DNA of 64,000 nucleotides from a candidate division CSSED10-310 bacterium. GTDB taxonomy: Bacteria; CSSED10-310. The position numbers were made by a program, and so were the translations under genes. The stretch is taken from assembly GCA_016931515.1 (NCBI GenBank), contig JAFGEQ010000006.1, forward strand, positions 24,649 through 88,648, given 5' to 3'. How positions within the stretch are numbered: position 1 is the stretch's first letter; the number at the start of each line of letters is the position of its first letter. Shown here piece by piece: positions 9,546 through 64,000 of the stretch. A model generated the notes under the pieces. It was not told where the DNA came from. It saw nothing but the letters and a program-made list of their open reading frames with translations, and did not search any database.

Positions 9546-9706
9546 ACGAGAGGTTGGATATTGGTGGAGAAGGATCTCGGTAAGTAATCGAACCCTCAAA
9601 CTGTTACCAAATACCTCATATTGGCGCATCCCAGGATAATGATGCCACGCCGGATGGAGCTTTGCATCTGGTATATTTTTTGCTTTAAGATTGGAAGACA
9701 GTTTGA

Positions 9707-10495: not shown

Positions 10496-10523
10496 AAATC
10501 AGAGTGCTGAAAGGGGATCGGTC

Positions 10524-44852: not shown

Positions 44853-44927
44853 CTGTTCATTCTCCCTTCACTCCGCTTCAGCCGTCCGTATTCACAACCC
44901 CAAGACATTCTCAGCCTATTATCGTAA

Positions 44928-45692
44928 TCATAATTCAGGTTTTTTATCAAACATCATGATGGTCATCGAATCAGCAGTTGTTCCGGAACCAGTGCTATCC
45001 CCGGTTTCCACCATTGTCAACCAGTCAGGCAAACCCAAAGCCCAACCAAATTCTGCAACTGCACCCGAAATATTCACATGCGGTTCACTCAGTATTTTCC
45101 TGATTCGCGCGGTTGTTGATAAACCGGTAATTTTGTGAAGCAAGCGAGGTAATTCCTGATTCAGTACAGGCCGTGGAAGATCGAGTTGTCCCCCGGAGAT
45201 TCTGGATCGATAGTGCTGCTCGATGCGCGGATCCGAACTGACCGTCCGAGTTGAACGGTCACGGATACGGGATTCAAGCAATTCCAGGCCGCGGACACCC
45301 AGTTGTTTCAGTTTTGCCTGTTCGAATGTATCAAGCTGCGTCGATGATCCGGATGCGTATTCAGAAGAAATTTCCCATTGATAGGAACCGATGTAATCGT
45401 TGCCGTTAAATGCGGTAAATCTCCATGCTGATTGGGTATCAACGGATAAAGCCAGCACGAACGACTGAAGCCGGTGAGCAATATCGGACGCCATATCCAC
45501 AGTCTTCTCCGGTATATTGATCAGACTGATCCAGCGCTCGGAATTCATGATGATTCGGATATCCCATACGAGTGTATCTAAATGTGATGTCCACCGACTG
45601 ACTGGCGCCAATCCCCTGCAGGCAGCCATATCGATCAATGCTTCCTGAACCTGTTTCTTCTGTCGATCCAGAATATGAACGCTTTCCAGCAT
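44928..45692 (-). CDS. hypothetical protein (254 aa)
   Basis: ORF divergent from the first GT-C-like membrane protein; no motif recognised. Confidence 0.35.
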   Translation of the reverse strand: MLESVHILDRQKKQVQEALIDMAACRGLAPVSRWTSHLDTLVWDIRIIMNSERWISLINIPEKTVDMASDIAHRLQSFVLALSVDTQSAWRFTAFNGNDYIGSYQWEISSEYASGSSTQLDTFEQAKLKQLGVRGLELLESRIRDRSTRTVSSDPRIEQHYRSRISGGQLDLPRPVLNQELPRLLHKITGLSTTARIRKILSEPHVNISGAVAEFGWALGLPDWLTMVETGDSTGSGTTADSMTIMMFDKKPEL

Positions 45693-45756
45693 GAGTCACC
45701 TCCTGTGCGATTCTTTCCACTTGAGCGCCGGGACAGTCTGCCTGTAGAATAGAATC

Positions 45757-47988: not shown

Positions 47989-48089
47989 GTGTTGAATGCT
48001 AGTGTTGGCTGCCTGAGTTTAGTGGGCTTAATTCAGACGAATTTGCCTGATGTGCAAGTATACCGGGTTGATAGGTAAGGAGAGGTAAA

Positions 48090-50396
48090 GTGAGAAATTT
48101 ATCTTTTGTCCTGCTTGCAGTGATGATTGCACTGCTGATTGGCTGCTCAGAGGGTGAGCGGGGACCCAAAGAATTCGATGTTCAGATTACTACCCAAAAA
48201 CTCGAAGACGGTCAGATATCTTTCAGTGCTGAAGTCGATGAAACAGTGAAGGGTGCATTAACCTATCAGTGGGATTTTGGAGATGCTACCACTTCTCCTT
48301 TAATTTCTCCGGTTCATCAATACACTGAATCAGGTCTTTTCCCGGTTACGGTTTCCGTAGTGGACTCCGAAGGCAACTTCGGTTCGGATCATCTCTTCTG
48401 TCGCAATGGTTTGACGATCGTTATCTGGATTCCCTGGGTTGCTATCATTGGATTATTGCTTGCACTTGTTTTTTATGTATGGATCAGGAAGCTTCCGGTC
48501 GGAACCGAGAAGATGAGGGAACTTTCCGAGCATATCCATCGTGGTTCGATGGTGTTCCTTAAACGAGAAAGCAGCTACCTGTACCGGTTTATCATAATCG
48601 TGTTTATTCTCCTTCTTTTTATTGGTTATCGCACGGCATTAGCGTTTTTGGGCGGCGCGATCTGTTCGATGCTGGCTGGATTGATCGGGATGATCGCTGC
48701 TACCCGCGCGAATGTTCGTACGGCTGAAGCGGCGCGTTCAGAGGGTTTATCACGAGCCCTTTTCGTGGCTTTCCTAGGCGGGGAAGTCATGGGCCTTTCG
48801 GTCGCGTCCCTGGGATTGCTTGGAGTGAGTCTGATCTTCCTGGTATTCGGCGATCCCAATCATTTCCAATACATCAGCGGATTCGCCATGGGAGCGAGTT
48901 CGATTGCTCTATTTGCCAGGGTTGGCGGAGGAATCTACACAAAGACAGCGGATGTAGGGGCAGATCTGGTTGGTAAGATCGAAGCAGGCATTCCGGAAGA
49001 TGATCCACGGAATCCGGGAGTTATCGCGGATAATGTCGGCGATAATGTCGGCGATGTTGCCGGAATGGGTGCAGATATTTTTGAGTCATACGTTGGATCT
49101 ATTGTTGCGACAGTAGCTCTGGGTGCAACAATGATCGCCAATGCCTATCAATATATGTTGTATCCGCTCGTGGTTGCCATGTTGGGTCTAATCGCTTCAA
49201 TCATTGGATTCGCTTCGATGAGGTTGTTCACTCATAAAGGTCCGGCGGCAGTGTTACGACTCTCGACCTATGTAGCCGCAGGTATCATGATAGTGACGTC
49301 TTTTTTCGCAGCCGTTTTCATGCTGGGGACAGGAAATGGTTTTCTGATCTGGCTGGCAATGGTTTTTGGATGTCTTTGCGGTGTTCTGATCGGTTTGATT
49401 ACTGAGTATTACACGTCGGGGAAACCCATCCGCACGATCGCCAAAAACTCCGAAACCGGTGCAGCAACAAATATTATCACCGGTCTGGCGGTAGGAATGG
49501 AATCCGTTGTTTTACCAGTTCTCACAATATGCATTGCAATTCTCATCGCATATTGGCTTGGTGGTCTGTATGGGATAGGAATCGCTGCAGTCGGGATGCT
49601 CGCGACCACCGGTATTACAATGAGTGTCGATGCATATGGACCCATTGCGGATAATGCCGGGGGAATTTCAGAGATGGCAGGTCTTGGACCCGATGTACGC
49701 AAGATTACCGACAGTCTGGATTCCCTGGGAAACACGACTGCTGCAATCGGCAAAGGGTTTGCGATCGGCAGCGCCGCTCTTACTGCTCTGGCTATGTTTT
49801 CAGCTTATACGCAGGCAGTTGTGATCAATATCAGTGATTTCAGCATCAACATCATGGACCCGATCGTTGTAACAGGTCTTTTTATAGGCGGCATGTTGCC
49901 TTTCTTCCTTGCCTCGAAAACAATGACCTCGGTGGGACGGGCAGCGAACAAAATGATTTCGGAGATCAGACGACAATTCAAAGAAATCCCTGGACTGATG
50001 GAAGGCACTTCGGAGCCCGATTTTGAACGTTGCATTGATATTTCGACCCAGAGTGCACTCCACGAAATGGTAATCCCGGGAGTAACGGCAGTACTCGCGC
50101 CTGTTTTGATCGGATGGATACTCGGTCCGGAGGCACTTGGTGGGGCGTTGGCGGGGGCAACGATAACAGGAGTGCTTCTGGCTCTGATGATGGCCAATGG
50201 CGGCGGTGCCTGGGATAATGCCAAGAAGTGGATAGAGGAAGGCAATCTGGGCGGAAAAGGTTCCGAAGCTCATAAAGCGGCAATAGTCGGTGACACGGTT
50301 GGAGATCCGTTCAAAGACACATCGGGGCCTGCCATGAATATCCTGATCAAATTAATGAGTGTCGTTTCGCTGGTCATCGCTCCGCTATTCGGTTAA
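48090..50396 (+). CDS. hppA: membrane-bound proton/sodium-translocating pyrophosphatase with N-terminal lipoprotein signal and PKD domain
   Basis: [22 protein letters not shown] and other H+-PPase signatures; GTG start with AAGGAGAGG RBS; residues ~1-20 signal with lipobox LIGC; residues ~25-110 PKD-like ([11 protein letters not shown]...[21 protein letters not shown]). Confidence 0.85.
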
Positions 50397-50442
50397 CGGG
50401 TGCCAAGACGCCAGGTTCCAGGATGATCGGATCAGCAGACGC

Positions 50443-51564
50443 ATGACACACACAATCTTCTACATTACACCTTCCGTGGAGTTGCTTGGAGCTCGCATCA
50501 GTCTGGTAGAATTGCTGCGTCACCTGGATCGAACACGGTATCGTCCGGTGGTTATTTGTCATCGATATGGTCCATTGATTGATAAGTTGAAGGAGATAAA
50601 CGTTGAGACTCGGATCGTTCGGTTTGGTAATTGGCGAAAACCAAAATACTGGCCGCTGATCCCTTTCGCGATAAGAGAACTAGTGGCACTTGGCAAAATT
50701 GAAAAAGCAGCGCTTTTTCACAGCAATGAATTCTGGTCGTTTCCTTACGCACGTTTAGCAGCCAATCGCCTGGGTATTCCCGCTTTTTCACATTTCCGCT
50801 GCAGCCGGACACCTCAACAGATTCCTCCCAGAAAAATCAAAAATTATTTGCTGCCCAAAGCGGATATGTTGATCGCTGTTTCCAGGGCTCAGCAGCGACT
50901 ATTTCGGGATTTTCCTGAGATGGCGGATCGAATTACAGTCATTCATAACGGAGTGGATCTTGAGCAGTTCGAACGAGCTGACGGAATTGGTTTCAGGCGT
51001 GAAATCGGAATGAATTCCGATGGACATCTGTTTGGTATCGTCGGTCCGGTCAGTCCTCATAAAGGCATTGAAGAGTTTATCCGTTCAGCAAAGATCATTT
51101 GCGACGCACTTCCCAACGCACATTTTGCGGTGGTCGGTCCTGAACGTCCACATGCATTTGCCGATACAATGCAAACTCTCGCCCAATCATTAAATATCGA
51201 AAAGAACGTGGTTTTCACTGGTTTTCGGATGGATATCCCGCAAATCATGTCGGCGTTTGATGTGCTGATCACACCATCCAGAGTAGAAGCGTTCGGACGG
51301 GTTATCCTCGAAGCGATGTCTGCAGGTACTCCAGTAGTGGCATCGCAGGTTGGAGGAATTCCAGAGATAATCGATCGACCTGAAATTGGCGTTTTAGTAC
51401 CACCGGAATCCCCTGAGAAACTGGCCGCAGCGGTATTGAGTCTAATTGCCGATCCGGAGAAAAAAAAGCGTATGATTGAGATCGCACGCGAACATGTCCG
51501 GAAGAATTTCACGATTGCCAGGCACACACGACAAGTGGAGCAAATTTACGAAAAATTTTTATAA
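50443..51564 (+). CDS. glycosyltransferase, GT4 family (group 1)
   Basis: GT-B C-terminal domain motifs, EAMSAGTPVVASQVGGIPEII; ATG 50443 chosen. Confidence 0.8.
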   Translation: MTHTIFYITPSVELLGARISLVELLRHLDRTRYRPVVICHRYGPLIDKLKEINVETRIVRFGNWRKPKYWPLIPFAIRELVALGKIEKAALFHSNEFWSFPYARLAANRLGIPAFSHFRCSRTPQQIPPRKIKNYLLPKADMLIAVSRAQQRLFRDFPEMADRITVIHNGVDLEQFERADGIGFRREIGMNSDGHLFGIVGPVSPHKGIEEFIRSAKIICDALPNAHFAVVGPERPHAFADTMQTLAQSLNIEKNVVFTGFRMDIPQIMSAFDVLITPSRVEAFGRVILEAMSAGTPVVASQVGGIPEIIDRPEIGVLVPPESPEKLAAAVLSLIADPEKKKRMIEIAREHVRKNFTIARHTRQVEQIYEKFL

Positions 51565-51651
51565 AAAACCTAGCTGAGAGTCGTTTTTACTCAGGAATGA
51601 TTGATTTTGCCTCCTTGATCGCATTACCTTATTAATTTGGCGAGGATGATT

Positions 51652-53808
51652 ATGTCCCAGATAGATGCGATAATTGAGGGCTACAAGGCATATTCGAACA
51701 ATCCGGAAGCCGAGGAAAGAATCCGGTTGGCTTATCAGATTGCCCGTGACGCGCATGCCGGTCAATTTCGTAAATCCGGTGAACCATACATTGTTCATCC
51801 GCTTGCAGTTGCACAAATACTGGTTGAGCTGAAAATGGATTCCGCATGTATTTGTGCTGCACTTCTCCATGATACGATTGAAGACACGGATATAGAACTG
51901 GAAACGATCCGGCAACAACTGGGACGAGAAATCGCTGTAATGGTCGATGCACTGACAAAGATCAAGACAAATGCCCTGGCTGAAAAAATTCACAAGGAGC
52001 AGGAACGTGCCGACACGATGCGGAAAATTGTTCTCGGAATGGCAAAAAACGTTCGTGTGATTATCGTCAAACTGGCGGATCGATGGAACAATGTACGAAC
52101 ACTTCAATTTATGAGCCTGGAAAAGCGGAAGCAGATTGCGCGGGAAACGATGGCCATCTATGCACCGATTGCTGATAGACTGGGGCTGTCCATTATTCGG
52201 CGGGACCTTGAGGATCAATCATTCAGTCATCTTGATCCGAAAAACTACCAGACCTACCAGCGGCGACTGGCGACGAGTAAAAGTTTTCTGGAGAACGACA
52301 TTAATGATCTGAAGCTTCAGGCAGAGGAAATTCTGGCTCGCCATGGTTTGAAGGTACGTATTTATGAGCGGTTCAAAACGGCCTTTTCACTGTATCAACG
52401 AGCCCTGCAAAAACTCCCTGCCCACATGCTTCATCTCGCGGTAATTACGACCTCCGATCTATCCTGCTATCAAGCACTGGGCATTCTGCACGAGAACTAC
52501 CGTCCGTTACCCGGAACAACAATAAAGGATTACATCGCAATTCCGCGGACGAACGGATATCAGGCTTTGCACACCTATGTTCTTTTCCGTGAGAATGTTT
52601 ACCCTATACAAATCCGGTCTGAAAAAATGGAGCAGGTAGCGATGTATGGGATTCTGCAGAGCGGAAATGAGAGCAGTCGTTCCCGATATCGCACCTGGAT
52701 AAAGCGTCTCAAAGAGCTGGTCCAGGATGAGGCGGATGCCAGGGATCTGATGAAGGGAATCGAAGATCTTGCAGCGCAGGATAAAATCTATGTTTGTACG
52801 CCACAGGGAGATTACCTGGGGTTCCCCCGTGATGCTGTTGTGTTGGATTTTGCATATCGAATTCACACGGACATTGGACACCGCTGTCAAGGTGCATTGA
52901 TGGATGAAAGACCCGCTGGAATTTTCGATAAGCTTGTTGATGGAGCCATGGTGGAAATTATTCATTCCGATGAGTATCAGATTCGCCCTGATTGGCTGGA
53001 TAATGTCAGGACACCCAGAAGTCGAACGGCCATAAGGAACTGGATCGAAACACGCAAACGAATCCGCAGTCGGGAATTCGGTGAACGATTACTGAATCTG
53101 GAGTTGGAGCGTCAGAAAATCGATTTGAGGAATCTGATCATGCAGGCGCGATTCGCCAGCATTCTGCAAGATATGAATGTTGCCGACACTGACGAGTTGT
53201 TTTTCAAAGTTGGAAGAGGAATTATTACAATAAAGACCGCCATGAAAAGCCTTCTCGATGAAGAGGAATACCGAAAATATACATCGCGAGGAACATCCCA
53301 GGTTTCGCGACTCTTCAGTTACTTTCTCAGTCGACCTAAAGTTGATGATGTTTTTGAGATAACGGATATCCACGATCCTTATCTGAAGTTTTCTCAATGC
53401 TGTAATCCATTGCACGGCGAAGAGATTGTCGGAATTTTATCCATTCAACACGGTCTCTCCGTTCACAGGATGGATTGTCCGCAATTAAAAACGCATCAAC
53501 GTGAAGATCTTCAATTGATTAAACTGGTCTGGAATACCGAAGACACTCGTCAGTCTCCTATTACTTTCAGACTGGTATGCAATAAAAAGGACGGGGTGCC
53601 ATCAACTATCTTTAACACACTGGAATCACATGAGGTTATTATACGCCACTTTCAACTCTGGCCGGAAGAAACTCAGATACTGATTCTCGTCGAGGTTATG
53701 TCCAACAGTGCGCAATACTCGGAACGAATTCAATCCATTCTTCAATCCATCAAAGGTGTTGAAAAAGTCATTCGTACCCAGTCTTTCGTGAAAGGCAAAC
53801 GGCCATGA
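51652..53808 (+). CDS. rel: bifunctional (p)ppGpp synthetase/hydrolase, RelA/SpoT family
   Basis: HD domain (HPLAVAQIL...LHDTIEDT), synthetase domain, TGS and ACT regions; ATG 51652 chosen (GAGG 6 nt upstream). Confidence 0.85.
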   Translation: MSQIDAIIEGYKAYSNNPEAEERIRLAYQIARDAHAGQFRKSGEPYIVHPLAVAQILVELKMDSACICAALLHDTIEDTDIELETIRQQLGREIAVMVDALTKIKTNALAEKIHKEQERADTMRKIVLGMAKNVRVIIVKLADRWNNVRTLQFMSLEKRKQIARETMAIYAPIADRLGLSIIRRDLEDQSFSHLDPKNYQTYQRRLATSKSFLENDINDLKLQAEEILARHGLKVRIYERFKTAFSLYQRALQKLPAHMLHLAVITTSDLSCYQALGILHENYRPLPGTTIKDYIAIPRTNGYQALHTYVLFRENVYPIQIRSEKMEQVAMYGILQSGNESSRSRYRTWIKRLKELVQDEADARDLMKGIEDLAAQDKIYVCTPQGDYLGFPRDAVVLDFAYRIHTDIGHRCQGALMDERPAGIFDKLVDGAMVEIIHSDEYQIRPDWLDNVRTPRSRTAIRNWIETRKRIRSREFGERLLNLELERQKIDLRNLIMQARFASILQDMNVADTDELFFKVGRGIITIKTAMKSLLDEEEYRKYTSRGTSQVSRLFSYFLSRPKVDDVFEITDIHDPYLKFSQCCNPLHGEEIVGILSIQHGLSVHRMDCPQLKTHQREDLQLIKLVWNTEDTRQSPITFRLVCNKKDGVPSTIFNTLESHEVIIRHFQLWPEETQILILVEVMSNSAQYSERIQSILQSIKGVEKVIRTQSFVKGKRP

Positions 53809-54653
53809 TAGATTCTCTCGGTCCAGAGCAACTCTCCTCTCTCTGCTCTGCGGCGCAACCGATTGTCCGAGAGGCCGGTAATCTAGTAACCGATTATTTC
53901 AACTCCCCTTTGGCCATTGAATATAAAAGTCGATTCGACATGGTCACCGAAGCGGACAAGGCATCCGAACGCTTCATTATCAATGCTCTTAATCAGTTAA
54001 CTCCTGGAATACCGATCATTGCGGAAGAATCTTCAGGAGAATTGGATGGAAGCGTTTTCCCGAATTCCTGGGTATGGGTCCTGGATCCCCTGGATGGAAC
54101 CACTAATTTTGCCCATGGTTTTCCTCATTTCGCTATTTCACTGGCCCTCCTCCATTCCGGTCATCCCCGGCTGGGTCTGGTGTATGATCCGTTGAAAGAA
54201 GAAATGTTTACGTCCGTTATGAACCAGGGATGCTTTCTGAATAATGTTATAGTGGCAGTGTCAGGCACCCGATCGCTCGAACGGAGTCTTATCGCGACCG
54301 GTTTCCCATATCGCGTGCGAGAGCTGAAACAAAACAATCTGATGGAATTTTGTGCTTTTCGTCTGGAATGCCAGGGGATAAGACGATTTGGTGCAGCGGC
54401 ATTGGATCTGGCCTATGTCGCAGCAGGCAGGCTGGACGGTTTCTGGGAACGATGGTTAAAACCATGGGATACTGCTGCAGGTATTCTGATGGTCGATGAA
54501 GCGGGTGGTTGTGTGAGTCGTTTTGACGGATCCGAATATTCTGTCCTTGATCCCGATATTGTCGCCTCCAATAACCTAATACACGCGATGATGCGGAATG
54601 TTCTGAACCAACCACTACCTGATTTGCCCCAATTTCCCCGGCTCGCAACATGA
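53805..54653 (+). CDS. inositol monophosphatase family protein (SuhB/CysQ-like)
   Basis: WVLDPLDGTTNFAHGFP and EESSGE motifs; ATGA overlap with rel. Confidence 0.8.
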   Translation: MIDSLGPEQLSSLCSAAQPIVREAGNLVTDYFNSPLAIEYKSRFDMVTEADKASERFIINALNQLTPGIPIIAEESSGELDGSVFPNSWVWVLDPLDGTTNFAHGFPHFAISLALLHSGHPRLGLVYDPLKEEMFTSVMNQGCFLNNVIVAVSGTRSLERSLIATGFPYRVRELKQNNLMEFCAFRLECQGIRRFGAAALDLAYVAAGRLDGFWERWLKPWDTAAGILMVDEAGGCVSRFDGSEYSVLDPDIVASNNLIHAMMRNVLNQPLPDLPQFPRLAT

Positions 54654-57600
54654 CGGCACACCGACACATATGTATGCGCATGATTCATCTTTCAGGTAAA
54701 CTTCTGAATCTGCTCGTTTTTCGAACCGTCCTGAGCCTTCCTTTTTTCTCCGGACATCTCTCGCCCCAATTCGCTTCGCTGTATTTGTATCTAATTCCGA
54801 TTGTCCTGGCTCTTCAGAGTCTTCTAGTGACTGCAATCCCTTCAACGAAAGCCCGGAAATATTGGTATGCGGACTCATTAACGATTATTGGAGTTGAACT
54901 GAGTACGCTCCTGATATTGGGATTCGCAGCCCGTAATTATCTGCTTCCGATGACCGGTTTGTTAATTGTTGTTATGACCTTTTTCCGTTCGCTGATACTT
55001 ATCGGATACATCGCGATGCTTCCCCACCAATCCGTTTCAGTTTTGCGGCGATCCGTATATCTGTCACTCGCGATTTGCCTTTTACTATCACCGCTGTCCT
55101 CCTGGAGAGAGATCAACCGCCCTCTTATGGGCGATGAACCATACTACCTGCTGATCGCATACAGTATCCTCCACGATCATGATATTGATCTGGTTAATAA
55201 TTACCGAAACGGAGATTCTTTAACATTTACGGATCAGCGATTGGAACCTCAGACTTTTGATAATTGGCGAAACGGCCGACTGATGTCACGACATCCGCCA
55301 ATGCTCCCAGTTTTTTTACTGCCTTCCTTCATTGTATTCGGTGTTCGAGGTGCCCTATTCTCACTAATACTTTTCACGGCATTATTGGCAGCAGGTTTGT
55401 ACAGATTGCTGACGCAATTCGATATATCTGACGATTTATCAGTGTGGATTTCTGCAATGACCGTTCTAACCGCACCCATGATCTTTTACTCCCAGGTTCT
55501 TTTCACCGAACTTCCAGCTGCCACGCTGGCTGTTATCACAGTATCCTGTGTATTGGATCTTAATCAGCGCAAGCGCTATCCCATTCTGCTTGCGTTAATC
55601 TGTACACTTGCAGCAACAGCGCTGAAAACGCGTTTTGCTTTGCTTTGCTTTGCACCACTGATTGTCAGCCTTGTTCTGAATATCAAATTGCGCCGCAGAC
55701 GATGGGGTTGGTTCGCCCTGGTTGGCCTATTACTGGTACTAATCGCCATCATTAATTCGACTTATTACGGATCACCACTTGGTCGTTATGTTCTATCTGA
55801 ATTAACTCGGCTTACGAATTGGAGGCTTTTCCGCGGTTTGCTTGGGACTCTTTTCGATCAACAATATGGATTGCTCCCGATAAATCCCATATTCGTTTTT
55901 GCGATTCCGGGAATGTTTTTTCTTTATAAATCAACCGGTTTGCCCAGGTTCCTGATATGGATTTCCGCCTGGTTGCCCACTTTTTTATTAATCGCTCTTT
56001 ATGCGGAGTTAACAGGAGGCATCTGTCCGAAAGGACGATTTCTCGTGGCGTGGGTGCCCTTTCTCGCAGTCCCCATCGCTTTTAGTCTATTTAATTTAAG
56101 AGGGTTTTTCTGGCGGAGTATAATCAGTGCCTCTCTTATCGCAACCTTACTGAACGTGTTCATCCAGCAGATTGATCCGAAATTACAGATTGTCTATCCT
56201 GGATCCTCTGACGGATTCCTTTCACGCATAAGTGGAATCCTCGGGATGGATTTAATCGGATGTATCCCGTCGTTTGACCGGGTTGAAGAGGGTTTGCTGC
56301 GGAGTGGACTCATCGCGTTTTTTGCAATCATGTGTCTCACGGTATTGGCGATCAGATACGGAGTCCGACCGTGTGCATCTTCTGAGCATTCATTACGGCA
56401 AAGAGGTTCCTTATCGTTTATCGTATTGGTGTTCCTGTCGATTTGTTCTTTGAGTGCTCTATGTCTGTTCCCTTTACAATCTCCATGGATGCATCCGGAG
56501 GATCCGGTATTCTCCACAACTGGCTCAGCCAGAGTTTTCTGGGAAGAACCTCGAAATTGGGATGATTGGAGTATTCGAACCGCATCACCGTACAGAAGCG
56601 GCATCCGGCTGCACCAAAACGACTCGCTGTTACGTGCGATCCGGCTCCGGTACCCGATCAGTGCATTGGATTCAGCGGCTGCGCTTGAGATTATTGCCAG
56701 AGGGAGTTATCCCGGACCGGAGATGCCGATTTTGGAAGTGGGTGTGGGTGATCATATACTGGGACACGTGACAGTGAAATCCAACGAATTCGAATCCTAC
56801 GTGGTCCCCTGGCCATATGGAGCATTGGATATACTTCCTCCCCTACGGTTAAAACATAGTGATTCAAGTGCAGGTGGCACTTATATTGATATCGATAAAA
56901 TCCGTCTTAGAAAATGGGAGGAGCCTTGGCCGATTATGCCCCCTAAACGGGATGATCCTTTTCCAATCTCATTTGGATCACTGACTGTACAGACAATAGA
57001 CCTTTCACCTGAGCCGGTACAACAAGGATATCCGTTTTCGATCAGCGCAAAGGTTGTTTTTGAAAATGAGACCCCACAACCGGATTTGGGTCTCCTGTTC
57101 ATCAGCGACACACGAGCTTATATCACTCCTCTTCAAAATCTTCGGTCAGAGGAACAGGTCGATTACACAATCACGATTCCTCCTCAATTTGGCAGCGGTA
57201 TATTTGAAGTGCTGGCTCAGGCCAGAGATCCCGATTCCGGTCAGTTCATTGCACCGGAAGGAACTCATTTTTTCAGGTGTGGGAAAAGAGCGTGGCTAGG
57301 CCGTATTATAGTTGATCCGGGACCTGTAGTTTCACAGGACAACTGGATCGAACGAATATCCGCAAAAACAGCGATTCCAGCCAATCATATTATACAGATT
57401 GACCGGAGTTGGCATCTATCGCGAAATTCCGATGTTGCGATTAAACTGGATCAGGAGATATCGGCCAATGGTCTGGTTCTGATCAGTAACATCTCATCTG
57501 TCTTTGAAGAGATACCATGGGACACATTCATCGGAATCATCGAGTTAGATAGCACTGAAAGCAACGTGGAATATCAGATTCAATTGGGAAAAGAGACAGC

Positions 57601-57844
57601 GGAAGCCATGTATGAATTTGGTGGCAAAGAAGTGCGTCTGGCTCATCCTCAGGCTCCGATTATTGAACGACAACCCAAGATCATTCACTGGCCGGTCGAG
57701 TTTGAGGGCATATCCTATAACGAAGTGATCTATTACTCCCGACTGGATTGGGGCAGGGATCTGCCAATTCGTGAAATCAGAGTCCGATCCCTAGATTTTC
57801 CTGGTGTCTGGAATACGTATGCTTTAGCATTGGTTCTACCATGA
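54650..57844 (+). CDS. giant GT-C-fold membrane protein (PMT/ArnT-like) with ~500-aa C-terminal extracytoplasmic domain
   Basis: ~12 TM helices; loop motif GDEPYYLLIAYSILHDHDIDLVNNY approx 55130-55200; ATGA overlap with upstream IMPase gene. Confidence 0.5.
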   Translation: MTAHRHICMRMIHLSGKLLNLLVFRTVLSLPFFSGHLSPQFASLYLYLIPIVLALQSLLVTAIPSTKARKYWYADSLTIIGVELSTLLILGFAARNYLLPMTGLLIVVMTFFRSLILIGYIAMLPHQSVSVLRRSVYLSLAICLLLSPLSSWREINRPLMGDEPYYLLIAYSILHDHDIDLVNNYRNGDSLTFTDQRLEPQTFDNWRNGRLMSRHPPMLPVFLLPSFIVFGVRGALFSLILFTALLAAGLYRLLTQFDISDDLSVWISAMTVLTAPMIFYSQVLFTELPAATLAVITVSCVLDLNQRKRYPILLALICTLAATALKTRFALLCFAPLIVSLVLNIKLRRRRWGWFALVGLLLVLIAIINSTYYGSPLGRYVLSELTRLTNWRLFRGLLGTLFDQQYGLLPINPIFVFAIPGMFFLYKSTGLPRFLIWISAWLPTFLLIALYAELTGGICPKGRFLVAWVPFLAVPIAFSLFNLRGFFWRSIISASLIATLLNVFIQQIDPKLQIVYPGSSDGFLSRISGILGMDLIGCIPSFDRVEEGLLRSGLIAFFAIMCLTVLAIRYGVRPCASSEHSLRQRGSLSFIVLVFLSICSLSALCLFPLQSPWMHPEDPVFSTTGSARVFWEEPRNWDDWSIRTASPYRSGIRLHQNDSLLRAIRLRYPISALDSAAALEIIARGSYPGPEMPILEVGVGDHILGHVTVKSNEFESYVVPWPYGALDILPPLRLKHSDSSAGGTYIDIDKIRLRKWEEPWPIMPPKRDDPFPISFGSLTVQTIDLSPEPVQQGYPFSISAKVVFENETPQPDLGLLFISDTRAYITPLQNLRSEEQVDYTITIPPQFGSGIFEVLAQARDPDSGQFIAPEGTHFFRCGKRAWLGRIIVDPGPVVSQDNWIERISAKTAIPANHIIQIDRSWHLSRNSDVAIKLDQEISANGLVLISNISSVFEEIPWDTFIGIIELDSTESNVEYQIQLGKETAEAMYEFGGKEVRLAHPQAPIIERQPKIIHWPVEFEGISYNEVIYYSRLDWGRDLPIREIRVRSLDFPGVWNTYALALVLP

Positions 57845-60800
57845 CGGTCGATTCAAACTGCAGATTTTTAAGACTTCTTGCAGCATCAATAGCGCATGTT
57901 ATTGCTGCAATTGTTCTGTTTTTGACTCTGAAAGTTATTAATCTATCACAGATTACTTCTACGTCTTTATGGGCTCACATGCTGACATGGCGCTACCCTC
58001 TACTCCTGGCAACATCTTCCATTCTGATTCTTTTCGTGAGTCGAAACTTAACCCGGGACCGACGGAATCTTATCATCAGGTTTGATACGGGTGTTTATGC
58101 ATTGACGCCAGTGGTTGTGATTCTGCATTCTATGGCTCCCTATAGCGGCGATCCGCAACTACTTTTCGGAAGTCTTTATGGGGGAGTTTTCATCTTAAAG
58201 TCCGTATTGATCGGTATCACGCTGCTGATTTCACAGCGCAAACGCCCCGTCACAGCCTCAATGTTATTCCTGATCATGTTATGGTTCTTCGGATTTGTCG
58301 GACTCTGGTATGGTCCCGTCCATCACATTCATGGCGATGAACCTCATTACCTACTGATGACTCACAGTATTGTTCATGATGGTGATCTTAATCTGATCAA
58401 CCAGTATCAGGAAAAAACGTATCTTACCTATCGATTGGATGAACTTCAGCCCAAAATATCAGATATCAAGGAACCAACGAAAATTTACTCAAGAGGACTT
58501 GGTGCTACCTTTCCGATGCTTCTGGCACCGGCATATGCATTGGGAGGCCTGCCCGGCACCCAGTTCTTCATAATTCTCTGCTCTACATTGCTTATCGTAC
58601 AGCTTTATCTGTTGTTGATGAGATGTGTACCGGATTCGCAACTCGCCCTGCTATCTGTTTTACTCATTGCAACAAGCAATCCTGTCTTGACTTACTCTTC
58701 CCTGATCTACCCGGATATTCCGGCCGCCTTATGCATCGTCATCGCTCTAAGAGTTCTGCAGACCCACCCGTTATCACAGGCCGGCAGATCGGTTCCGACT
58801 TGGATTTTTCTTCTTTCGGCAGCCTTGTTATTCCTTAAATTCAGGTATTTTATTCCTGTCATCCTTCTAATGATTCCAGTTCTAAATCGCGAATGCCGAA
58901 AAATGCGAAATGGTATCTCTCTCCTGATTGCACTTCTGTTGCTTGCGGGAACATATGTTATCGGAGATAGATGGTTCTTGGACGGCGACCTTTTTTCCAA
59001 CCGATTCGGCGGCATTGCTCAAATAAAAAATTATCTGCCGGGGATGCAGAGTCTGAAGGTTCTGCCGGGGTTACTGCTTGATCAAGAGAGTGGATTTATG
59101 TTCCACGCGCCGCTGTATTTTTTAATAATAGCCGGTATATCGCTATACAGGGGTCCGCGAAACAGCCTTTACTGGTTCAGTGTTCTTGGAATTCCGATGA
59201 CTGCAATTTCCCTGTTCGGTCACTTCGCTTGGCACTGCCTGCCAACTCCTCCCTTGCGGTATATGCTTCCCGTTCTTCCACCCACGGCTTTCCTTCTGGC
59301 GTCAGCATTGAAGAACTGGAAAAATCGCAGTTTTGTTTTCCGCACACTGTCCGCTGCATGCATTGTTTCATCATGGCTGACAGCCGGTATCCATTTCATA
59401 ATGCCGGATTGGCAGAATAATCTCGCCGATGGATCAGCCCGGTTTCTTGAAGCGCTGGCCACTGCCATCCGAATACCAGTTCCTCTTTTTTTCCCGTCCG
59501 CCATCCGACCCGGAACAGCATTATGGGTCTGGTTGATACTGATGATACCCTGCCTGATTATTCTGACCGCTCCTTTTGCACGGGATGCCCGGAAGAGTCC
59601 AGGTTATTTTCAGCCGTCGGTTATGATCACGATTCTTCTGGGAGTAGCAGTCATTTATTGCGGCACGATGAGTCATGCGGTTGTCAGGACGTACCATCCT
59701 GAAGACAGATGGTGGAATCAGCCCGATGGCGGCACTTATTTTCCGGAGAACCGTGATCCGTTCTTCCACCAGGAAATCTCTTACGGATGGCAACTCCGCT
59801 CCGGTGAATCATTGAGAATTCCACTTCGAATCAAGGATACCAGAGCGACAGGGATTATTCGATGTCGACTCATTGATTCGTGGAGACCTCATCAGTTAAC
59901 GATTAAACTGTCGGATCAATCGACCGAAAGAATCAATGTTACTTCGAAACACTGGACAGAATACGCTTTTAAGATTCCTCCGGACGCGCATTTGAATACC
60001 ATCGATATTGCTTCAATCGGGAAGGGCGAACATGCTGTTGCCATTGATTCGGTCACAATCGTCAAGCGGTCGGACGCGCTCTTCTCCCTATGGAACAATT
60101 TAGCTGCACTCAGCCGCAGGGCTAAATGTCATCGATTCACCATGGCTTGTGACTACAGATCGATGCTGGTCGCTGATGGGGACCCCTGGTACGAAGTGGC
60201 ATCACGATTCCGACCCGGGGCTAGGCCGAGGGTATCTCGCGCAGCGGAAGCGGATCCATTGCCACCGGGTTTTTTGAATCAGATCTTTCAGGATGCGGTG
60301 AATGCCGGTTGGGACTCTGCATCTCATATTGAAAAGCTGTTCCAATTCTCTTTTTGCAGCGAGCTTCAAGGAGAGTCACTTCGCGACTACGCAATAAACG
60401 GTTTACTGACGGCACATCAACCGGCTGTTTTTCTATTAATCACACTGGCTGAAAAATACCCTGACGATGAAACAATTCAGTTTTATCTACCGATCGCGTA
60501 TTACTTGCGGGGAAACACCTACAAAGCGGTAGACATGCTGGATACTTTGTTAATTACGGGAAAATATTATCCGATGCAACTGACAAAACCCGCCTCTCAT
60601 CTAGAAGTATCGAATCCATTGTATTCCCTCTTTAGCGATCTGGAAAACGATCCTGAATATATAGAGATCGCTCGGATGGTAAATAACCGTCATTTGGCTA
60701 AAAGTATTCAGTGCTATCATAATGGGGCTATTCGAGAAGCAGCGCTTTACTTTGACGACTACTATCTTTCGGATTTTGGTATTTTCATGGAAAGTGTTCC

Positions 60801-61167
60801 GGACATTTCACAGGAATATATTTCCACCGTGTTCGGATATGCATCGCGTATTCATACAATCCATGTGCGGCAATTGGTAGAAGAGGCTCTTGAAGCTCAC
60901 CACCCGAAGATCGCCTATGCAGCGGCCACATATGGATTACGCATGAAACCCAAAGATCCGGAACTTCGTTTTGGCGAGGCAAGGGCGTTGTTCCATGAGA
61001 GAGATTTTATTCAAGCCCGGCAGATATGCCTTGAAAATTCAAGTTTGTATCTGGATGATGATCGTTCAAGGTGGTTGCTGGAACAGATCATGATACACAT
61101 GAAACAAGAGGGCGATCGACTGGGAGGGAAAAGCGATAGCAAGCCGGGAAGCAGAGTCATTTCATAA
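57841..61167 (+). CDS. giant GT-C-fold membrane protein, paralog of the preceding gene, with C-terminal TPR-like helical domain
   Basis: Loop motif GDEPHYLLMTHSIVHDGDLNLINQY approx 58333-58410, clearly paralogous to upstream gene; ATGA overlap. Confidence 0.5.
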   Translation: MTVDSNCRFLRLLAASIAHVIAAIVLFLTLKVINLSQITSTSLWAHMLTWRYPLLLATSSILILFVSRNLTRDRRNLIIRFDTGVYALTPVVVILHSMAPYSGDPQLLFGSLYGGVFILKSVLIGITLLISQRKRPVTASMLFLIMLWFFGFVGLWYGPVHHIHGDEPHYLLMTHSIVHDGDLNLINQYQEKTYLTYRLDELQPKISDIKEPTKIYSRGLGATFPMLLAPAYALGGLPGTQFFIILCSTLLIVQLYLLLMRCVPDSQLALLSVLLIATSNPVLTYSSLIYPDIPAALCIVIALRVLQTHPLSQAGRSVPTWIFLLSAALLFLKFRYFIPVILLMIPVLNRECRKMRNGISLLIALLLLAGTYVIGDRWFLDGDLFSNRFGGIAQIKNYLPGMQSLKVLPGLLLDQESGFMFHAPLYFLIIAGISLYRGPRNSLYWFSVLGIPMTAISLFGHFAWHCLPTPPLRYMLPVLPPTAFLLASALKNWKNRSFVFRTLSAACIVSSWLTAGIHFIMPDWQNNLADGSARFLEALATAIRIPVPLFFPSAIRPGTALWVWLILMIPCLIILTAPFARDARKSPGYFQPSVMITILLGVAVIYCGTMSHAVVRTYHPEDRWWNQPDGGTYFPENRDPFFHQEISYGWQLRSGESLRIPLRIKDTRATGIIRCRLIDSWRPHQLTIKLSDQSTERINVTSKHWTEYAFKIPPDAHLNTIDIASIGKGEHAVAIDSVTIVKRSDALFSLWNNLAALSRRAKCHRFTMACDYRSMLVADGDPWYEVASRFRPGARPRVSRAAEADPLPPGFLNQIFQDAVNAGWDSASHIEKLFQFSFCSELQGESLRDYAINGLLTAHQPAVFLLITLAEKYPDDETIQFYLPIAYYLRGNTYKAVDMLDTLLITGKYYPMQLTKPASHLEVSNPLYSLFSDLENDPEYIEIARMVNNRHLAKSIQCYHNGAIREAALYFDDYYLSDFGIFMESVPDISQEYISTVFGYASRIHTIHVRQLVEEALEAHHPKIAYAAATYGLRMKPKDPELRFGEARALFHERDFIQARQICLENSSLYLDDDRSRWLLEQIMIHMKQEGDRLGGKSDSKPGSRVIS

Positions 61168-61187
61168 CACACTGATGGATCGGGAAG

Positions 61188-62822
61188 ATGGATTATTTTG
61201 AGCTGAAAAAATCTGTTGAGTGCCTTCATAGTATATTAACCGGCGCACATCTGATGAATGTATTTCAGCCTGAAACCCGATGTATGAATTTTATAATCAG
61301 GACACGGTTCAAGACCTCAGGGGATCGAATTCTGCAATGTGAATGCATGAATCAGAAAGCCGGTATATTCCTGCTTGAAGACACGCGTCAAGGTGACCAG
61401 GCTGCTACACTATTGGCTCGTTCCTTCCGGAAAAAAATGGTTGGCGCCACTATCCAGTCGATCGAGATGCCTTTTCCTGACCGGGTAGTCATGATCCGGT
61501 TTTCGTTAGCGGAATGGAGAAATGATAGAGAATTATGGATTGAGCTATATGGATCCAGAAGCAACATCACATTGGTTGATACATCCTCGCGCGTTATTCT
61601 CGATTGCCTGAGTAAATTTCCTGAAAACACACAGAAACACCCTCTGCGCATGCCGGGGCGACTGTTCGTGAGCGCATGGGAACACTCCGGACACCGGGTG
61701 CAGCCATTACAGGATTTGGTGCGTGTTCCAGATTTGTGGCCGAATGATCCCCAAACAGAAACCGTTGCTGCCAGGCTTAGATCCGGATTCGCTCCAATGA
61801 CGCCTGAATTAAGCAGAACTTTAGCCGGCATCAAGATAGCAGAAGGAACAGGTGCCGCGATAAATCACCTCCGTACCTTCTTCAATGGGATCGAAACACT
61901 TTTTTGTTCAAATCACGATGATGCAATAAAATATTTGATATCTTTAAGTCATCGACAATCTGATCACAATGCGGAAGAACGTCTGGCAAAGAACGTTAAC
62001 CGGCTTGCGAAAATAATCTCCACAGCGCAGCGCAATTGCGAAAAGAAAATAAATGCGCTGGAAATGGATCTGTCGCACATTCCCGATCCGACCACGCTTC
62101 GCAGAAGAGCCGATTTACTCGCTATCAATTTTCATTGTCTTCGTACCGGGATGGGACAAGTGGAGGTCGATGATATTTACGATTATCCTGTTTGTAAGTT
62201 AACGATTGAACTGGATCCGGAGAAGAATCCGAGTGATAATTTAAAGCTCTTGTTCAGGAAGGCTGCGAAAGCGGAACGTGCGGGGCCTCGTATTAAAGAG
62301 CGGTTGGCGATTTTGCGCAAAGAATGGACCTCTTTAGATTCATTGCTGGAAAAAATAAAAGCAATCGGATCACCGGATGAGTGCCGGGAGGTCGAAAAAC
62401 AGTTGAGGGCAACCGGTTTTTCACTGGAGCAATCGTTTCATAATCAACGGGATATCATGCTCACCGGCAAACCTTTCCTTCGCTTCACGTCACCGGACGG
62501 GTGGAGGGTCCTGGTCGGACGTAATGCCAGGGAGAACGATCTGTTGAGTTTTAAAGAATCGACACCGGAAGATTTTTGGCTTCATGCGCAGGGATATCAT
62601 GGGGCACATGTAATTATCCGCAATCCAGGAAAACAGGATATACTCCCGAGTAGAACGGTAGAGTTTGCTGCATCTCTTGCCGTACGTTTTTCCGGGGCAA
62701 GAGGAGAGAAAGCTGTGACTGTCATATGCACAAAGAGGAAATATGTCCGGCGAGTACCCGGAAACCGGCCGGGCCTTGTCAGGGTGACACGGCATGAAAC
62801 TGTGATGATCGACTCCGTTTGA
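61188..62822 (+). CDS. NFACT-family protein (RqcH/FbpA-like ribosome quality control / fibronectin-binding homolog)
   Basis: C-terminal NFACT-R/DUF814-like motif FWLHAQGYHGAHVIIRN; 544 aa. Confidence 0.55.
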   Translation: MDYFELKKSVECLHSILTGAHLMNVFQPETRCMNFIIRTRFKTSGDRILQCECMNQKAGIFLLEDTRQGDQAATLLARSFRKKMVGATIQSIEMPFPDRVVMIRFSLAEWRNDRELWIELYGSRSNITLVDTSSRVILDCLSKFPENTQKHPLRMPGRLFVSAWEHSGHRVQPLQDLVRVPDLWPNDPQTETVAARLRSGFAPMTPELSRTLAGIKIAEGTGAAINHLRTFFNGIETLFCSNHDDAIKYLISLSHRQSDHNAEERLAKNVNRLAKIISTAQRNCEKKINALEMDLSHIPDPTTLRRRADLLAINFHCLRTGMGQVEVDDIYDYPVCKLTIELDPEKNPSDNLKLLFRKAAKAERAGPRIKERLAILRKEWTSLDSLLEKIKAIGSPDECREVEKQLRATGFSLEQSFHNQRDIMLTGKPFLRFTSPDGWRVLVGRNARENDLLSFKESTPEDFWLHAQGYHGAHVIIRNPGKQDILPSRTVEFAASLAVRFSGARGEKAVTVICTKRKYVRRVPGNRPGLVRVTRHETVMIDSV

Positions 62823-62973
62823 TCTCCCGAGGAAATTTCATCGGAATGGAGTGTCTTTCTGATTTGCATTGCTCGGTGTTTTTTGTAATTATCGTTGACC
62901 GGTTATTGATCAGTTTCAAGCCTGGAAACAAAGTGTAAATAGCGAAATTCAACCGCAGGAAAGGGGCACAGAT

Positions 62974-64000
62974 ATGAAGATAGCAGTGATTGGTACGGGT
63001 TATGTTGGTTTGGTCTCTGGAGTTTGTTTTGCGGAGTGTGGGCACGATGTGATTTGCGTCGATAACAATCAACGGAAAATTGACAATCTGAAAAGTGGGA
63101 AAATCCCGATATTTGAGCCTGGATTGGATCAACTCGTCATAAAGAATTCCAATGAAAAACGGCTTCATTTTACAACTCAGATACCTGAGGCCGTACGGAT
63201 ATGTGACGTTATATTTATCGCTGTTGGAACGCCGCCCTTGCCTACAGGTGAAGCGGATCTGTCCTATATTGAAAATGTTGCTCGGCAGGTGGCTCAAGCC
63301 ATGACCGAATATAAAGTTATCGTGGAGAAGAGCACCGTTCCGGTAAAAACCGGCGAATGGGTCAAAAGAACAATTCGATTCAATTGTAAGAGTGGTGTTG
63401 AGTTTGATGTGGCATCAAATCCCGAGTTTCTTCGGGAGGGGTCTGCCATCGGTGATTTCCTGAAGCCGGACAGGATCGTTGTTGGCGTGGAATCTGAACG
63501 CGCTGCCGATCTGCTACGGGGTTGTTACCAGCCGATTATCGAACAATCGGTTTCATTTGATCTGGACAAGCAGGAAGTTATCCATCAACCCGCACAAGGA
63601 AACAGGGTGCCTTTTCTGGTTACTAACGTGAGTTCATCGGAACTGATCAAGCACGCATCAAATTCATTTCTTGCTTTAAAAATTTCGTACATCAACGCAG
63701 TTGCAAATTTCTGCGAACTTGCCGGTGCTGATGTCGAACAGGTTGCACGAGGAATGGGATTGGACAGCCGAATCGGTTCGAAATTTCTGGATGCAGGTGT
63801 AGGGTATGGCGGATCGTGTTTTCCAAAGGATGTCAGTGCATTTTTGGAGATATCCCGGGAACTGGGTTATGAGTTCGATCTTTTGGAGGAGGTCATCCGG
63901 ATCAATAAACTGCAGCGGGAGCTGTTTGTTCGCAAAGTCAAAAAAGCGATGTGGATCGTTAAGGATAAAACATTTGCTGTTCTTGGATTGTCTTTTAAAC
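62974..64000 (+). CDS. ugd: UDP-glucose 6-dehydrogenase (nucleotide-sugar dehydrogenase), 3'-truncated by window edge
   Basis: MKIAVIGTGYVGLVSGVCFAECGHDV Rossmann N-terminus, catalytic region GYGGSCFPKD; frame open to window end; not in ORF track because no stop. Confidence 0.8.
   Translation, partial: MKIAVIGTGYVGLVSGVCFAECGHDVICVDNNQRKIDNLKSGKIPIFEPGLDQLVIKNSNEKRLHFTTQIPEAVRICDVIFIAVGTPPLPTGEADLSYIENVARQVAQAMTEYKVIVEKSTVPVKTGEWVKRTIRFNCKSGVEFDVASNPEFLREGSAIGDFLKPDRIVVGVESERAADLLRGCYQPIIEQSVSFDLDKQEVIHQPAQGNRVPFLVTNVSSSELIKHASNSFLALKISYINAVANFCELAGADVEQVARGMGLDSRIGSKFLDAGVGYGGSCFPKDVSAFLEISRELGYEFDLLEEVIRINKLQRELFVRKVKKAMWIVKDKTFAVLGLSFK

Follow-up and report, generated by a model that had tools for sequence, protein, structure and literature searches.

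Why should a gene of the stringent response stand at the head of a series that encodes a phosphatase and two giant membrane glycosyltransferases? The question is raised by a 64,000-nucleotide stretch of DNA (hereafter, the window) from a candidate division CSSED10-310 bacterium (assembly GCA_016931515.1, contig JAFGEQ010000006.1, positions 24,649 to 88,648 of the forward strand), in which rel is followed on the same strand by genes for an inositol monophosphatase (IMPase), two membrane proteins with the GT-C type of glycosyltransferase core, and an NFACT protein. The phylum CSSED10-310 is uncultured and rare; it has been described as a sister of Acidobacteriota (PMC8248873). The original prediction, made from the letters of this sequence, was that transcribing a (p)ppGpp enzyme together with glycosyltransferases of the envelope would tie nutrient signalling to the synthesis of surface glycans. 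We find that the arrangement with its uncharacterised GT-C pair is real and undescribed and that its order is conserved phylum-wide in the loci compared; judging from its residues, its first product does not synthesise (p)ppGpp. The features of the core locus are as follows.

51652-62822, plus strand: locus core, five large open reading frames (ORFs), namely rel, IMPase, GT-C1, GT-C2 and NFACT
51601-51630, plus strand: sigma70-like motif before rel, a consensus match; TTGATT at 51601-51606, an 18-nt spacer and TACCTT at 51625-51630
51652-53808, plus strand: long RelA/SpoT homologue (RSH) of the Rel type, 718 amino acids (aa); TIGR00691 at 562.6 bits (cutoff 499.2), residues 32-714
53805-53808, plus strand: ATGA overlap of the rel stop and the IMPase start, read in the sequence
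53805-54653, plus strand: SuhB-type IMPase family protein, 282 aa; Pfam Inositol_P (PF00459), 240 bits
54650-54653, plus strand: ATGA overlap of the IMPase stop and the GT-C1 start, read in the sequence, without a Shine-Dalgarno (SD)-like sequence upstream
54650-57844, plus strand: GT-C1, 1064 aa; about five extra N-terminal transmembrane (TM) helices, a GT-C core and C-terminal domains
57841-57844, plus strand: ATGA overlap of the GT-C1 stop and the GT-C2 start, read in the sequence, without an SD-like sequence upstream
57841-61167, plus strand: GT-C2, 1108 aa; paralogous to GT-C1, carrying the same GDEP motif and one sandwich resembling a carbohydrate-binding module (CBM)
61188-62822, plus strand: NFACT/RqcH-like protein, 544 aa; Pfam NFACT_N (E 1.4e-44) and NFACT-R_1

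In the public record, the Rel and GT-C1 proteins of the window are MBN1878936.1 and MBN1878938.1, respectively.

Gene order and junctions of the rel locus

Related loci were obtained by tracing the orthologues of GT-C1 and Rel to their own contigs. This gave eight independent relatives (L001, L003, L005, L006, L089, L090, L091 and L092), among which L006 comes from the genome on which the phylum was founded, GCA_003558985.1; L002, from a frameshifted long-read assembly, is an extra relative, and L004 repeats L003. In the counts of gaps and promoter motifs below, the nine loci are the window and these eight relatives. The order Rel-IMPase-GT-C1-GT-C2-NFACT is kept in 8/8 independent relatives and also in L002. 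The original prediction was to be dropped if no relative shared the arrangement; it is kept in 9/9. The gaps between the genes, in nt, are as follows.

rel/IMPase: window -4, L001 -4, L003 -4, L005 -4, L006 -8, L090 +8, L089 +6, L091 +21, L092 -1
IMPase/GT-C1: window -4, L001 -4, L003 -4, L005 -4, L006 -1, L090 -4, L089 -4, L091 -1, L092 +181 as called
GT-C1/GT-C2: -4 in the window, L001, L003, L005, L006, L090, L089 and L091; L092 +5
GT-C2/NFACT: window +20, L001 +7, L003 -8, L005 +11, L006 +5, L090 +11, L089 +11, L091 +2, L092 +2

The three ATGA overlaps that had been read in the window at 53805-53808, 54650-54653 and 57841-57844 are exactly where they were reported. Taken alone, three such overlaps in a row are only mildly unusual: a 4-nt ATGA overlap occurs at 6/35 same-strand junctions of the window (17%), and three of the six lie outside the rel operon. 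We therefore rejected the overlaps as significant by themselves; the case goes beyond chance because they are conserved in relatives. Among the eight relatives, the exact -4 overlap is found at 3/8 rel/IMPase, 5/8 IMPase/GT-C1 and 7/8 GT-C1/GT-C2 junctions, and in L092, where the called IMPase/GT-C1 gap is +181 nt, the reading frame is open upstream of the called start. The NCBI annotation begins GT-C1 eight codons downstream of the overlap (54674 rather than 54650, giving 1056 instead of 1064 aa). L001, whose protein is the nearest orthologue, lacks a Met at this position and begins at the overlapping ATG, and the 1064-aa version is also on record in the protein collection; these comparisons support the overlapping start at 54650 over that of NCBI.

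The core is kept at considerable sequence divergence, the lowest identity to the window among the relatives being 40% for Rel, 30% for GT-C1, 30% for GT-C2, 32% for NFACT, 54% for IMPase and 66% for the membrane pyrophosphatase (PPase) encoded upstream. In L092, the deepest relative (positions 6189-6813 and 9607-10000), the upstream GT4 glycosyltransferase gene is absent, a PIN toxin/antitoxin pair lies between the DUF2142 and PPase genes, and ugd is replaced after NFACT by a flavoprotein/DFP gene, with the stretch from rel to NFACT untouched. Because the flanks are altered while the core is intact, the core has been held together as its surroundings changed.

Is this order found elsewhere? 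We examined 80 Rel loci from other phyla among the matches listed, which are canonical and 30-35% identical; they came from a profile scan with the Rel alignment that was dominated by the generic LLHDTIED pattern and returned no clade genomes, and the set was reused as a negative control for both synteny and residues. Among these matches, the Rel-IMPase-GT-C association occurs in 0/80 loci, and neither a GT-C gene of this family nor an NFACT gene lies near Rel (0/80). An IMPase gene lies within 10 kb of Rel in 3/80 and adjoins rel in none; the two strong IMPase matches of the three are about 5 kb off on the opposite strand. Likewise, no RSH or IMPase gene was seen near distant GT-C homologues outside the phylum in the three loci sampled (L007/L008, L093 and L094). 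Because IMPase, GT-C or NFACT genes do not adjoin Rel in these loci of other phyla, the association is lineage-specific. Our literature searches found no description of a rel/spoT-suhB operon, nor of the stringent response or the envelope of CSSED10-310, which agrees with the initial remark that the arrangement was not known as a described one.

Where might transcription begin? For every gene of the nine loci, we scanned the preceding 150 nt for the pattern TTGnnn-N16-18-TAnnnT. Before rel, the motif is present in 9/9 loci at a fixed position, 20-26 nt before the ATG, within a GT4-to-rel spacer of 80-88 nt (87 nt in the window) that contains a conserved block. It reads TTGATT-N17/18-TA(C/A)(C/T)TT in the six closer loci and TTGCAA-N17-TATTTT, TTGCCA-N17-TATTTT and TTGCGT-N17-TATCTT in the three deep ones; the chance of one match per spacer is 0.05-0.22. 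In the window, GAGGATGATT precedes the ATG at 51652, and an SD sequence, GAGG, lies at 51641. The original prediction had named internal promoters as an observation that would speak against it, and the same comparison revealed no conserved internal motif: matches precede IMPase in 0/9 loci, GT-C1 in 0/9, GT-C2 in 2/9 (at differing positions) and NFACT in 1/9. No SD-like sequence was seen within 20 nt before GT-C1 or GT-C2, which would fit translational coupling of these two genes by termination and reinitiation. NFACT follows GT-C2 at -8 to +20 nt in all nine loci and is probably the last gene of the rel unit; in the window, ugd begins 151 nt after it. From these motifs and spacings we infer the units [DUF2142], [PPase-GT4], [rel-IMPase-GT-C1-GT-C2-NFACT] and [ugd...]. 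The PPase and GT4 genes do lie upstream in the same orientation, as had been noted; because a conserved sigma70-like motif directly precedes rel in 9/9 loci, we detach them from the rel unit, and they probably form a separate transcription unit. Generic scans of 44800-64000, uninformative without the comparison across loci, were not enriched for promoters (26 sites against 27.4 expected from shuffles) or terminators (18 against 18.6), and an Rfam search of the same interval at E<=1 gave no match, including to ppGpp/PRPP or other known riboswitches or leaders.

The main rival to a functional operon is the neutral retention of an ancestral order, in which the genes were packed together in the ancestor of the phylum and have hitch-hiked since, RSH, SuhB and NFACT being housekeeping genes unrelated to the GT-C pair. 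The frequency of ATGA overlaps in the window is what this explanation would expect, and so is the absence of the Rel-IMPase-GT-C association from the 80 other-phyla loci and the three distant GT-C loci. Moreover, the whole neighbourhood of about 20 kb, from PmbA/TldD to an STK kinase, is syntenic in most loci. However, the core survives at 30% identity in GT-C, 32% in NFACT and 40% in Rel, where the flanks have already suffered loss, insertion or replacement, and the overlaps and the lack of internal promoter motifs are maintained as well. We regard neutral retention as a possible but rather doubtful account. Were it correct, the locus would still show cleanly how deeply an operon can be conserved in a phylum without cultured members.

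A Rel-derived RSH without synthetase residues

Does the first gene encode a working (p)ppGpp synthetase? Its assignment to the RelA/SpoT family holds, given the TIGR00691 score above the cutoff. Pfam detects HD_4 (143 bits), a partial RelA_SpoT domain (52 bits), TGS and RelA_AH_RIS, and the architecture HD-SYNTH-TGS-helical/RIS-ZFD-RRM of a long RSH is retained. We aligned the protein with the Rel proteins of Bacillus subtilis (6yxa) and Mycobacterium smegmatis (8fr8). First, D264 of B. subtilis Rel (in yDLLAVRI) aligns with His258 of the window Rel, following a five-residue deletion. Second, E324 (in LEVQIRT) aligns with Pro318 (in YPIQIRS). Third, AAHW is absent, the segment GVAAHWxYKE being replaced by YGILQSGNESS. 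These losses are common to 5/5 aligned orthologues and to 22/22 full-length members of the clade, which is well separated in protein searches (601-1613 bits within the clade; next-best matches <=442 bits), and the GRxK motif has also degenerated in its deeper members. The canonical Rels included in the clade alignment keep all SYNTH motifs, and among the 80 other-phyla loci the Glu is kept in 77/80 and the Asp motif with AAHW in 76/80. In B. subtilis Rel, D264G and E324V are each synthetase-dead alleles (PMC7797070, PMC7098656). Because the catalytic Asp and Glu and AAHW have been lost clade-wide, the CSSED10-310 Rel is, on its residues, not a (p)ppGpp synthetase and at most degrades the alarmone.

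The hydrolase motifs RKSGEPYIVHPL, LLHDTIEDT and KLADRWNN are, on the other hand, invariant in the five orthologues and align with those of B. subtilis and M. smegmatis Rel. We therefore predict a Rel-derived, hydrolase-only long RSH (Rel[Hs]). The SYNTH domain is still constrained even as a pseudo-domain, with a mean pairwise identity within the clade of 51%, compared with 57% for HD, and with the guanine-binding segment PRxNGYQALHT kept. In the TGS domain, the His that aligns with B. subtilis H420, a residue that reads the CCA end of tRNA (PMC7797070), is invariant as well. The clade as a whole evolves quickly, Rel identity being 40% where PPase identity is 72% and IMPase identity 54%.

These losses bear directly on the reading in which a bifunctional, (p)ppGpp-making Rel ties starvation to glycan synthesis. 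The domain architecture, the score above the TIGR00691 cutoff and the public annotation do resemble those of a normal Rel: MBN1878936.1 and the clade proteins P0043-P0068 are named bifunctional (p)ppGpp synthetase/guanosine-3',5'-bis(diphosphate) 3'-pyrophosphohydrolase. Nevertheless, 22 clade members carry His and Pro at the positions of D264 and E324, a five-residue deletion before the Asp site and no AAHW, with GRxK degenerate in deep members, and D264G or E324V alone inactivates synthesis by B. subtilis Rel. A working synthetase, as the term (p)ppGpp enzyme had implied, thus disagrees with the residues, and we consider this reading very improbable. The public annotation of MBN1878936.1 as a bifunctional enzyme would accordingly need correction in so far as the synthetase catalytic residues are absent.

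A precedent exists in the hydrolase-only SpoT[Hs] of Moraxellaceae, which has a regulatory pseudo-SYNTH domain (PMC9974481, PMC3153485). Like Acinetobacter baumannii SpoT (PDB 7qpr), the window protein has the full length of a long RSH, an HD domain that is conserved and looks active, and C-terminal regulatory domains, and it has lost the SYNTH catalytic residues while retaining the domain. Unlike it, the window RSH is closer to Rel, scoring 340 bits with M. smegmatis Rel and 321 bits with B. subtilis Rel compared with 219 bits with A. baumannii SpoT, and its score of 406 bits with the SpoT equivalog NF008303 (cutoff 947) places it outside beta/gamma-proteobacterial SpoT. The genomic context differs as well. 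In Moraxellaceae the partner synthetase is RelA; the roughly 260 kb of clade DNA examined here contained no partner. Because the window RSH is Rel-like rather than SpoT-like by these bit scores, the loss of the synthetase in CSSED10-310 looks like an event independent of that in Moraxellaceae. This would be an apparent second origin of a hydrolase-only long RSH, from Rel and not from SpoT, outside Proteobacteria, and it raises the question of what, if anything, makes (p)ppGpp in CSSED10-310.

The GT-C pair, the IMPase and the NFACT protein

The description of the two giant proteins as GT-C is borne out by fold comparison: as modelled, both have the GT-C transmembrane fold. GT-C2 gave the same matches as GT-C1 (for GT-C2, ALG12 20.3, ArnT 19.3 and ALG9 16.7), and its sequence is 27% identical to GT-C1 over 385 aa (E 8e-19). 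The C-terminus of GT-C1 (about residues 610-1064) consists of periplasmic beta-sandwich, CBM-like domains. In GT-C2, one CBM-like sandwich is modelled with confidence, and the C-terminal region gives a weak TPR signal; for this protein the TM core and the first sandwich are modelled well, and everything beyond residue 760 poorly. A GDEP motif, at G161-P164 in GT-C1 (D162/E163) and G165-P168 in GT-C2 (D166/E167), is invariant in alignments of 41 and 39 sequences. Because the N-terminus is basic and the inward loops (residues 64-71 and 127-133) are rich in K/R, the positive-inside rule would place this motif in the first outward loop, after five TM helices. GT-C enzymes carry their catalytic acid on the outer face.

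Sequence models recognise these proteins poorly. Pfam gave no family for GT-C1 and, for GT-C2, sub-threshold PMT (E 0.007) and TPR matches; a family-profile search of PDB sequences with the GT-C family gave no match, and fold comparison alone worked. The only curated sequence model to detect both, in the TM core, is NCBIfam NF047440 (the LA_3751/LA_3752 putative glycosyltransferase of Leptospira), at 58 and 21 bits against a cutoff of 200 bits, which indicates a distant relationship and not membership. Unlike ALG12/ALG9 (GT22), ArnT (GT83), PMT (GT39) and STT3/PglB/AglB (GT66), GT-C1 and GT-C2 belong to no Pfam or CAZy-linked family, and they differ from known GT-Cs in their approximately five extra N-terminal TM helices. 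The uncharacterised family is large: a threshold of E<=1e-3 gives 2425 cluster representatives, and one of E<=1e-10 gives 1272. We thus draw attention to a group of over 1,200 such representatives, not covered by any Pfam model, that in CSSED10-310 takes the form of an obligatorily paired duo with CBM-like domains, probably translationally coupled. Known paired or giant GT-Cs for comparison are Pmt1-Pmt2, mycobacterial EmbA/B/C and AftD.

What might the donor be? The distant GT-C homologues outside the phylum sit in ordinary polysaccharide clusters, directly followed, often with an overlap, by one or more GT2 genes (L007 13355-14200, L008 4244-5110, L093 8344-11302 and L094 9955-10809). Such a GT2 would fit a polyprenyl-phosphate-sugar synthase that supplies the GT-C donor. 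No GT2 gene of that kind is present in the CSSED10-310 operon, and the argument that GT-C1 and GT-C2 use a polyprenyl-phosphate-linked donor is circumstantial.

The IMPase carries the metal-binding motifs DPLDGTTNF and WDTAAG and has the Inositol_P fold. In family, length, metal-binding motifs and score (about 200 bits), it resembles E. coli SuhB and bacterial IMPase (PDB 2qfl, 6ib7); its best PDB matches are of this bacterial IMPase/SuhB kind, at 195-209 bits. It differs from E. coli SuhB in falling below the equivalog cutoff, its best NCBIfam model being the E. coli-type inositol-1-monophosphatase NF008027 at 200.6 bits (cutoff 332). It may act as a phosphatase, as a Nus-complex factor or as both. 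E. coli suhB is not known to be linked to relA/spoT or to glycosyltransferases.

An IMPase beside glycosyltransferases suggests a smaller rival, namely that the enzyme supplies myo-inositol for a glycan anchored on phosphatidylinositol, similar to phosphatidylinositol mannosides, lipomannan and lipoarabinomannan (PIM/LM/LAM-like). The GT4 enzyme, as a PimA-like protein, would then build the glycan and the GT-Cs would extend it in the periplasm, with the RSH as passenger or regulator. However, neither an inositol-1-phosphate synthase nor a CDP-alcohol phosphatidyltransferase was found in the 64-kb window, the IMPase is nearest to the SuhB type of bacteria that make no inositol lipids, and the GT4 protein lies above no specific family cutoff and is dispensable in L092. 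We therefore consider an inositol-glycolipid pathway unlikely.

In the NFACT protein, the NFACT_N match covers profile positions 293-446 only, and the first 260 or so residues are divergent. With the bacterial EfbA model, and likewise with the archaeal RqcH equivalog, the protein scores far below the cutoff. The RqcH-like gene and ugd that had been placed downstream are both present, at 61188-62822 and from 62974, respectively.

Possible joint expression of the five genes, and the neighbouring genes

How might these observations be combined? Location on the same strand, overlaps, the lack of a promoter motif or SD of their own in downstream genes, and conservation are the sequence features of a coupled operon, and the locus shows them. 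On balance, we think it somewhat probable that the locus is a vertically inherited, coupled operon of five genes, rsh[Hs]-suhB-gtcA-gtcB-nfact, with a hydrolase-only RSH and paired GT-Cs. The operon of CSSED10-310 would be read from its own sigma70-like promoter, about 45 nt before the rsh ATG, with no separate promoter for the IMPase gene or either GT-C gene and no recognisable SD before the latter two. Ribosomes that finish at an overlapping TGA would resume at the ATG with which it overlaps, and such termination-reinitiation coupling would peg the downstream output to that of the first gene. The RSH would hydrolyse (p)ppGpp only, its SYNTH domain surviving as a regulatory pseudo-domain, as in the SpoT[Hs] of Moraxellaceae. 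GT-C1 and GT-C2 would be glycosyltransferases dependent on lipid-phosphate sugars, with periplasmic carbohydrate-binding modules; because their genes are always adjacent and overlapping, the two probably act as a pair (compare Pmt1-Pmt2 and EmbA-EmbB). The substrate of this pair may be an envelope glycan, and the DUF2142 GT-C, GT4 and Ugd proteins encoded in the flanks would contribute to the same glycan.

The coupling is most economically read as the joint expression of growth-permissive functions, that is, alarmone removal, a SuhB-type factor and glycan extension; we do not favour a stress signal that is driven by a synthetase and feeds glycosylation. The proposed link between nutrient signalling and surface glycan synthesis, for which the argument was gene order, is not supported. 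If the link within the operon is functional, it would represent a new coupling of alarmone turnover, ribosome-related factors (SuhB and NFACT) and envelope glycosylation.

Several points weigh against this coupled operon. Conserved gene order is not proof of a functional link, and bacterial operons often mix unrelated housekeeping genes, as in gmk-rpoZ-spoT-trmH-recG of E. coli. The rel/IMPase overlap is not universal, the two genes being separated by 6, 8 and 21 nt in the deep loci L089, L090 and L091. The promoter calls are consensus matches, and the consensus may not be the sigma specificity of this uncultured phylum; no terminator is evident after GT4, so that read-through from PPase-GT4 is possible. 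Finally, the hydrolase-only status is a prediction from residues. Neither the window nor the nine clade loci contain a second RSH, a small alarmone synthetase (SAS) or another SYNTH-domain gene, but the clade DNA covered, about 260 kb, is a small fraction of a genome.

For three of the five operon products (RSH, SuhB-type and NFACT), family members in other bacteria work at or near the ribosome. Because the TGS His that reads the tRNA CCA end is kept, as is the PRxNGYQALHT loop for guanine binding, while the synthetase residues have been lost, we also speculate that the pseudo-synthetase RSH might be a dedicated sensor of the operon that reports the status of the ribosome or of guanine nucleotides and, with the SuhB-type phosphatase and NFACT, gates a heteromeric GT-C machine. 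This is an improbable proposal as it stands; if true, translation status and periplasmic glycan assembly would be hard-wired to each other in a manner not known before, in a phylum that perhaps has no long-RSH synthetase.

The features flanking the operon are as follows.

45757-47988, plus strand: DUF2142 membrane protein, 743 aa; Pfam DUF2142, E 8.6e-16
47977-48005, plus strand: promoter motif before PPase, TTGACC at 47977-47982, N17 and TAGTGT at 48000-48005; overlaps the end of the DUF2142 ORF
48090-50396, plus strand: membrane pyrophosphatase; H_PPase 890 bits, PKD_4 E 8e-11
50443-51564, plus strand: GT4 glycosyltransferase; Glycos_transf_1 138 bits, Glyco_transf_4 76 bits
62974-64000, plus strand, running off the window: ugd (UDP-glucose 6-dehydrogenase); translation begins MKIAVIGTGYVG

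BLASTP of GT-C1 against the DUF2142 protein gave no match, whereas profile-profile comparison (hhalign) with the GT-C1 family did (probability 95.4%, E 1.7e-8, 420 columns); by this comparison, the DUF2142 protein is a remote third paralogue of the GT-C type. The upstream enzyme that had been called an H+-PPase is indeed a membrane PPase, but of the Na+-translocating kind, as its NCBIfam equivalog (NF001961, 1023 bits, above the cutoff) indicates. Its promoter motif, TTGACC-N17/18-TAnnnT, is present in 9/9 loci at 77-119 nt before the start, and leaves a leader of about 80-120 nt across loci (about 84 nt in the window, within 47977-48089). Among the other genes, motifs were counted in 6/9 loci for DUF2142, 1/8 for GT4 and 2/8 for ugd. 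The upstream GT4 glycosyltransferase was correctly recognised, given its Pfam matches; it probably starts at the ATG at 50443, orthologue calls being 373-384 aa. The ugd orthologues carry UDPG_MGDP_dh domains.

The PPase has an N-terminal extension of about 110 aa, comprising a lipoprotein-like signal (...LLIGC) followed by PKD, which is kept in all related loci with intact calls. A spacer of 64 nt separates the DUF2142 gene from a divergent 254-aa ORF without a Pfam match (44928-45692, minus strand), and a gene of 249-260 aa, also without a Pfam match, occupies the same spot in 8/9 related loci. Elsewhere in the window, at 9707-13328 on the plus strand, two adjacent genes encode proteins with the type IV pilin N-methylation motif, of which the second is unusually large (950 aa).

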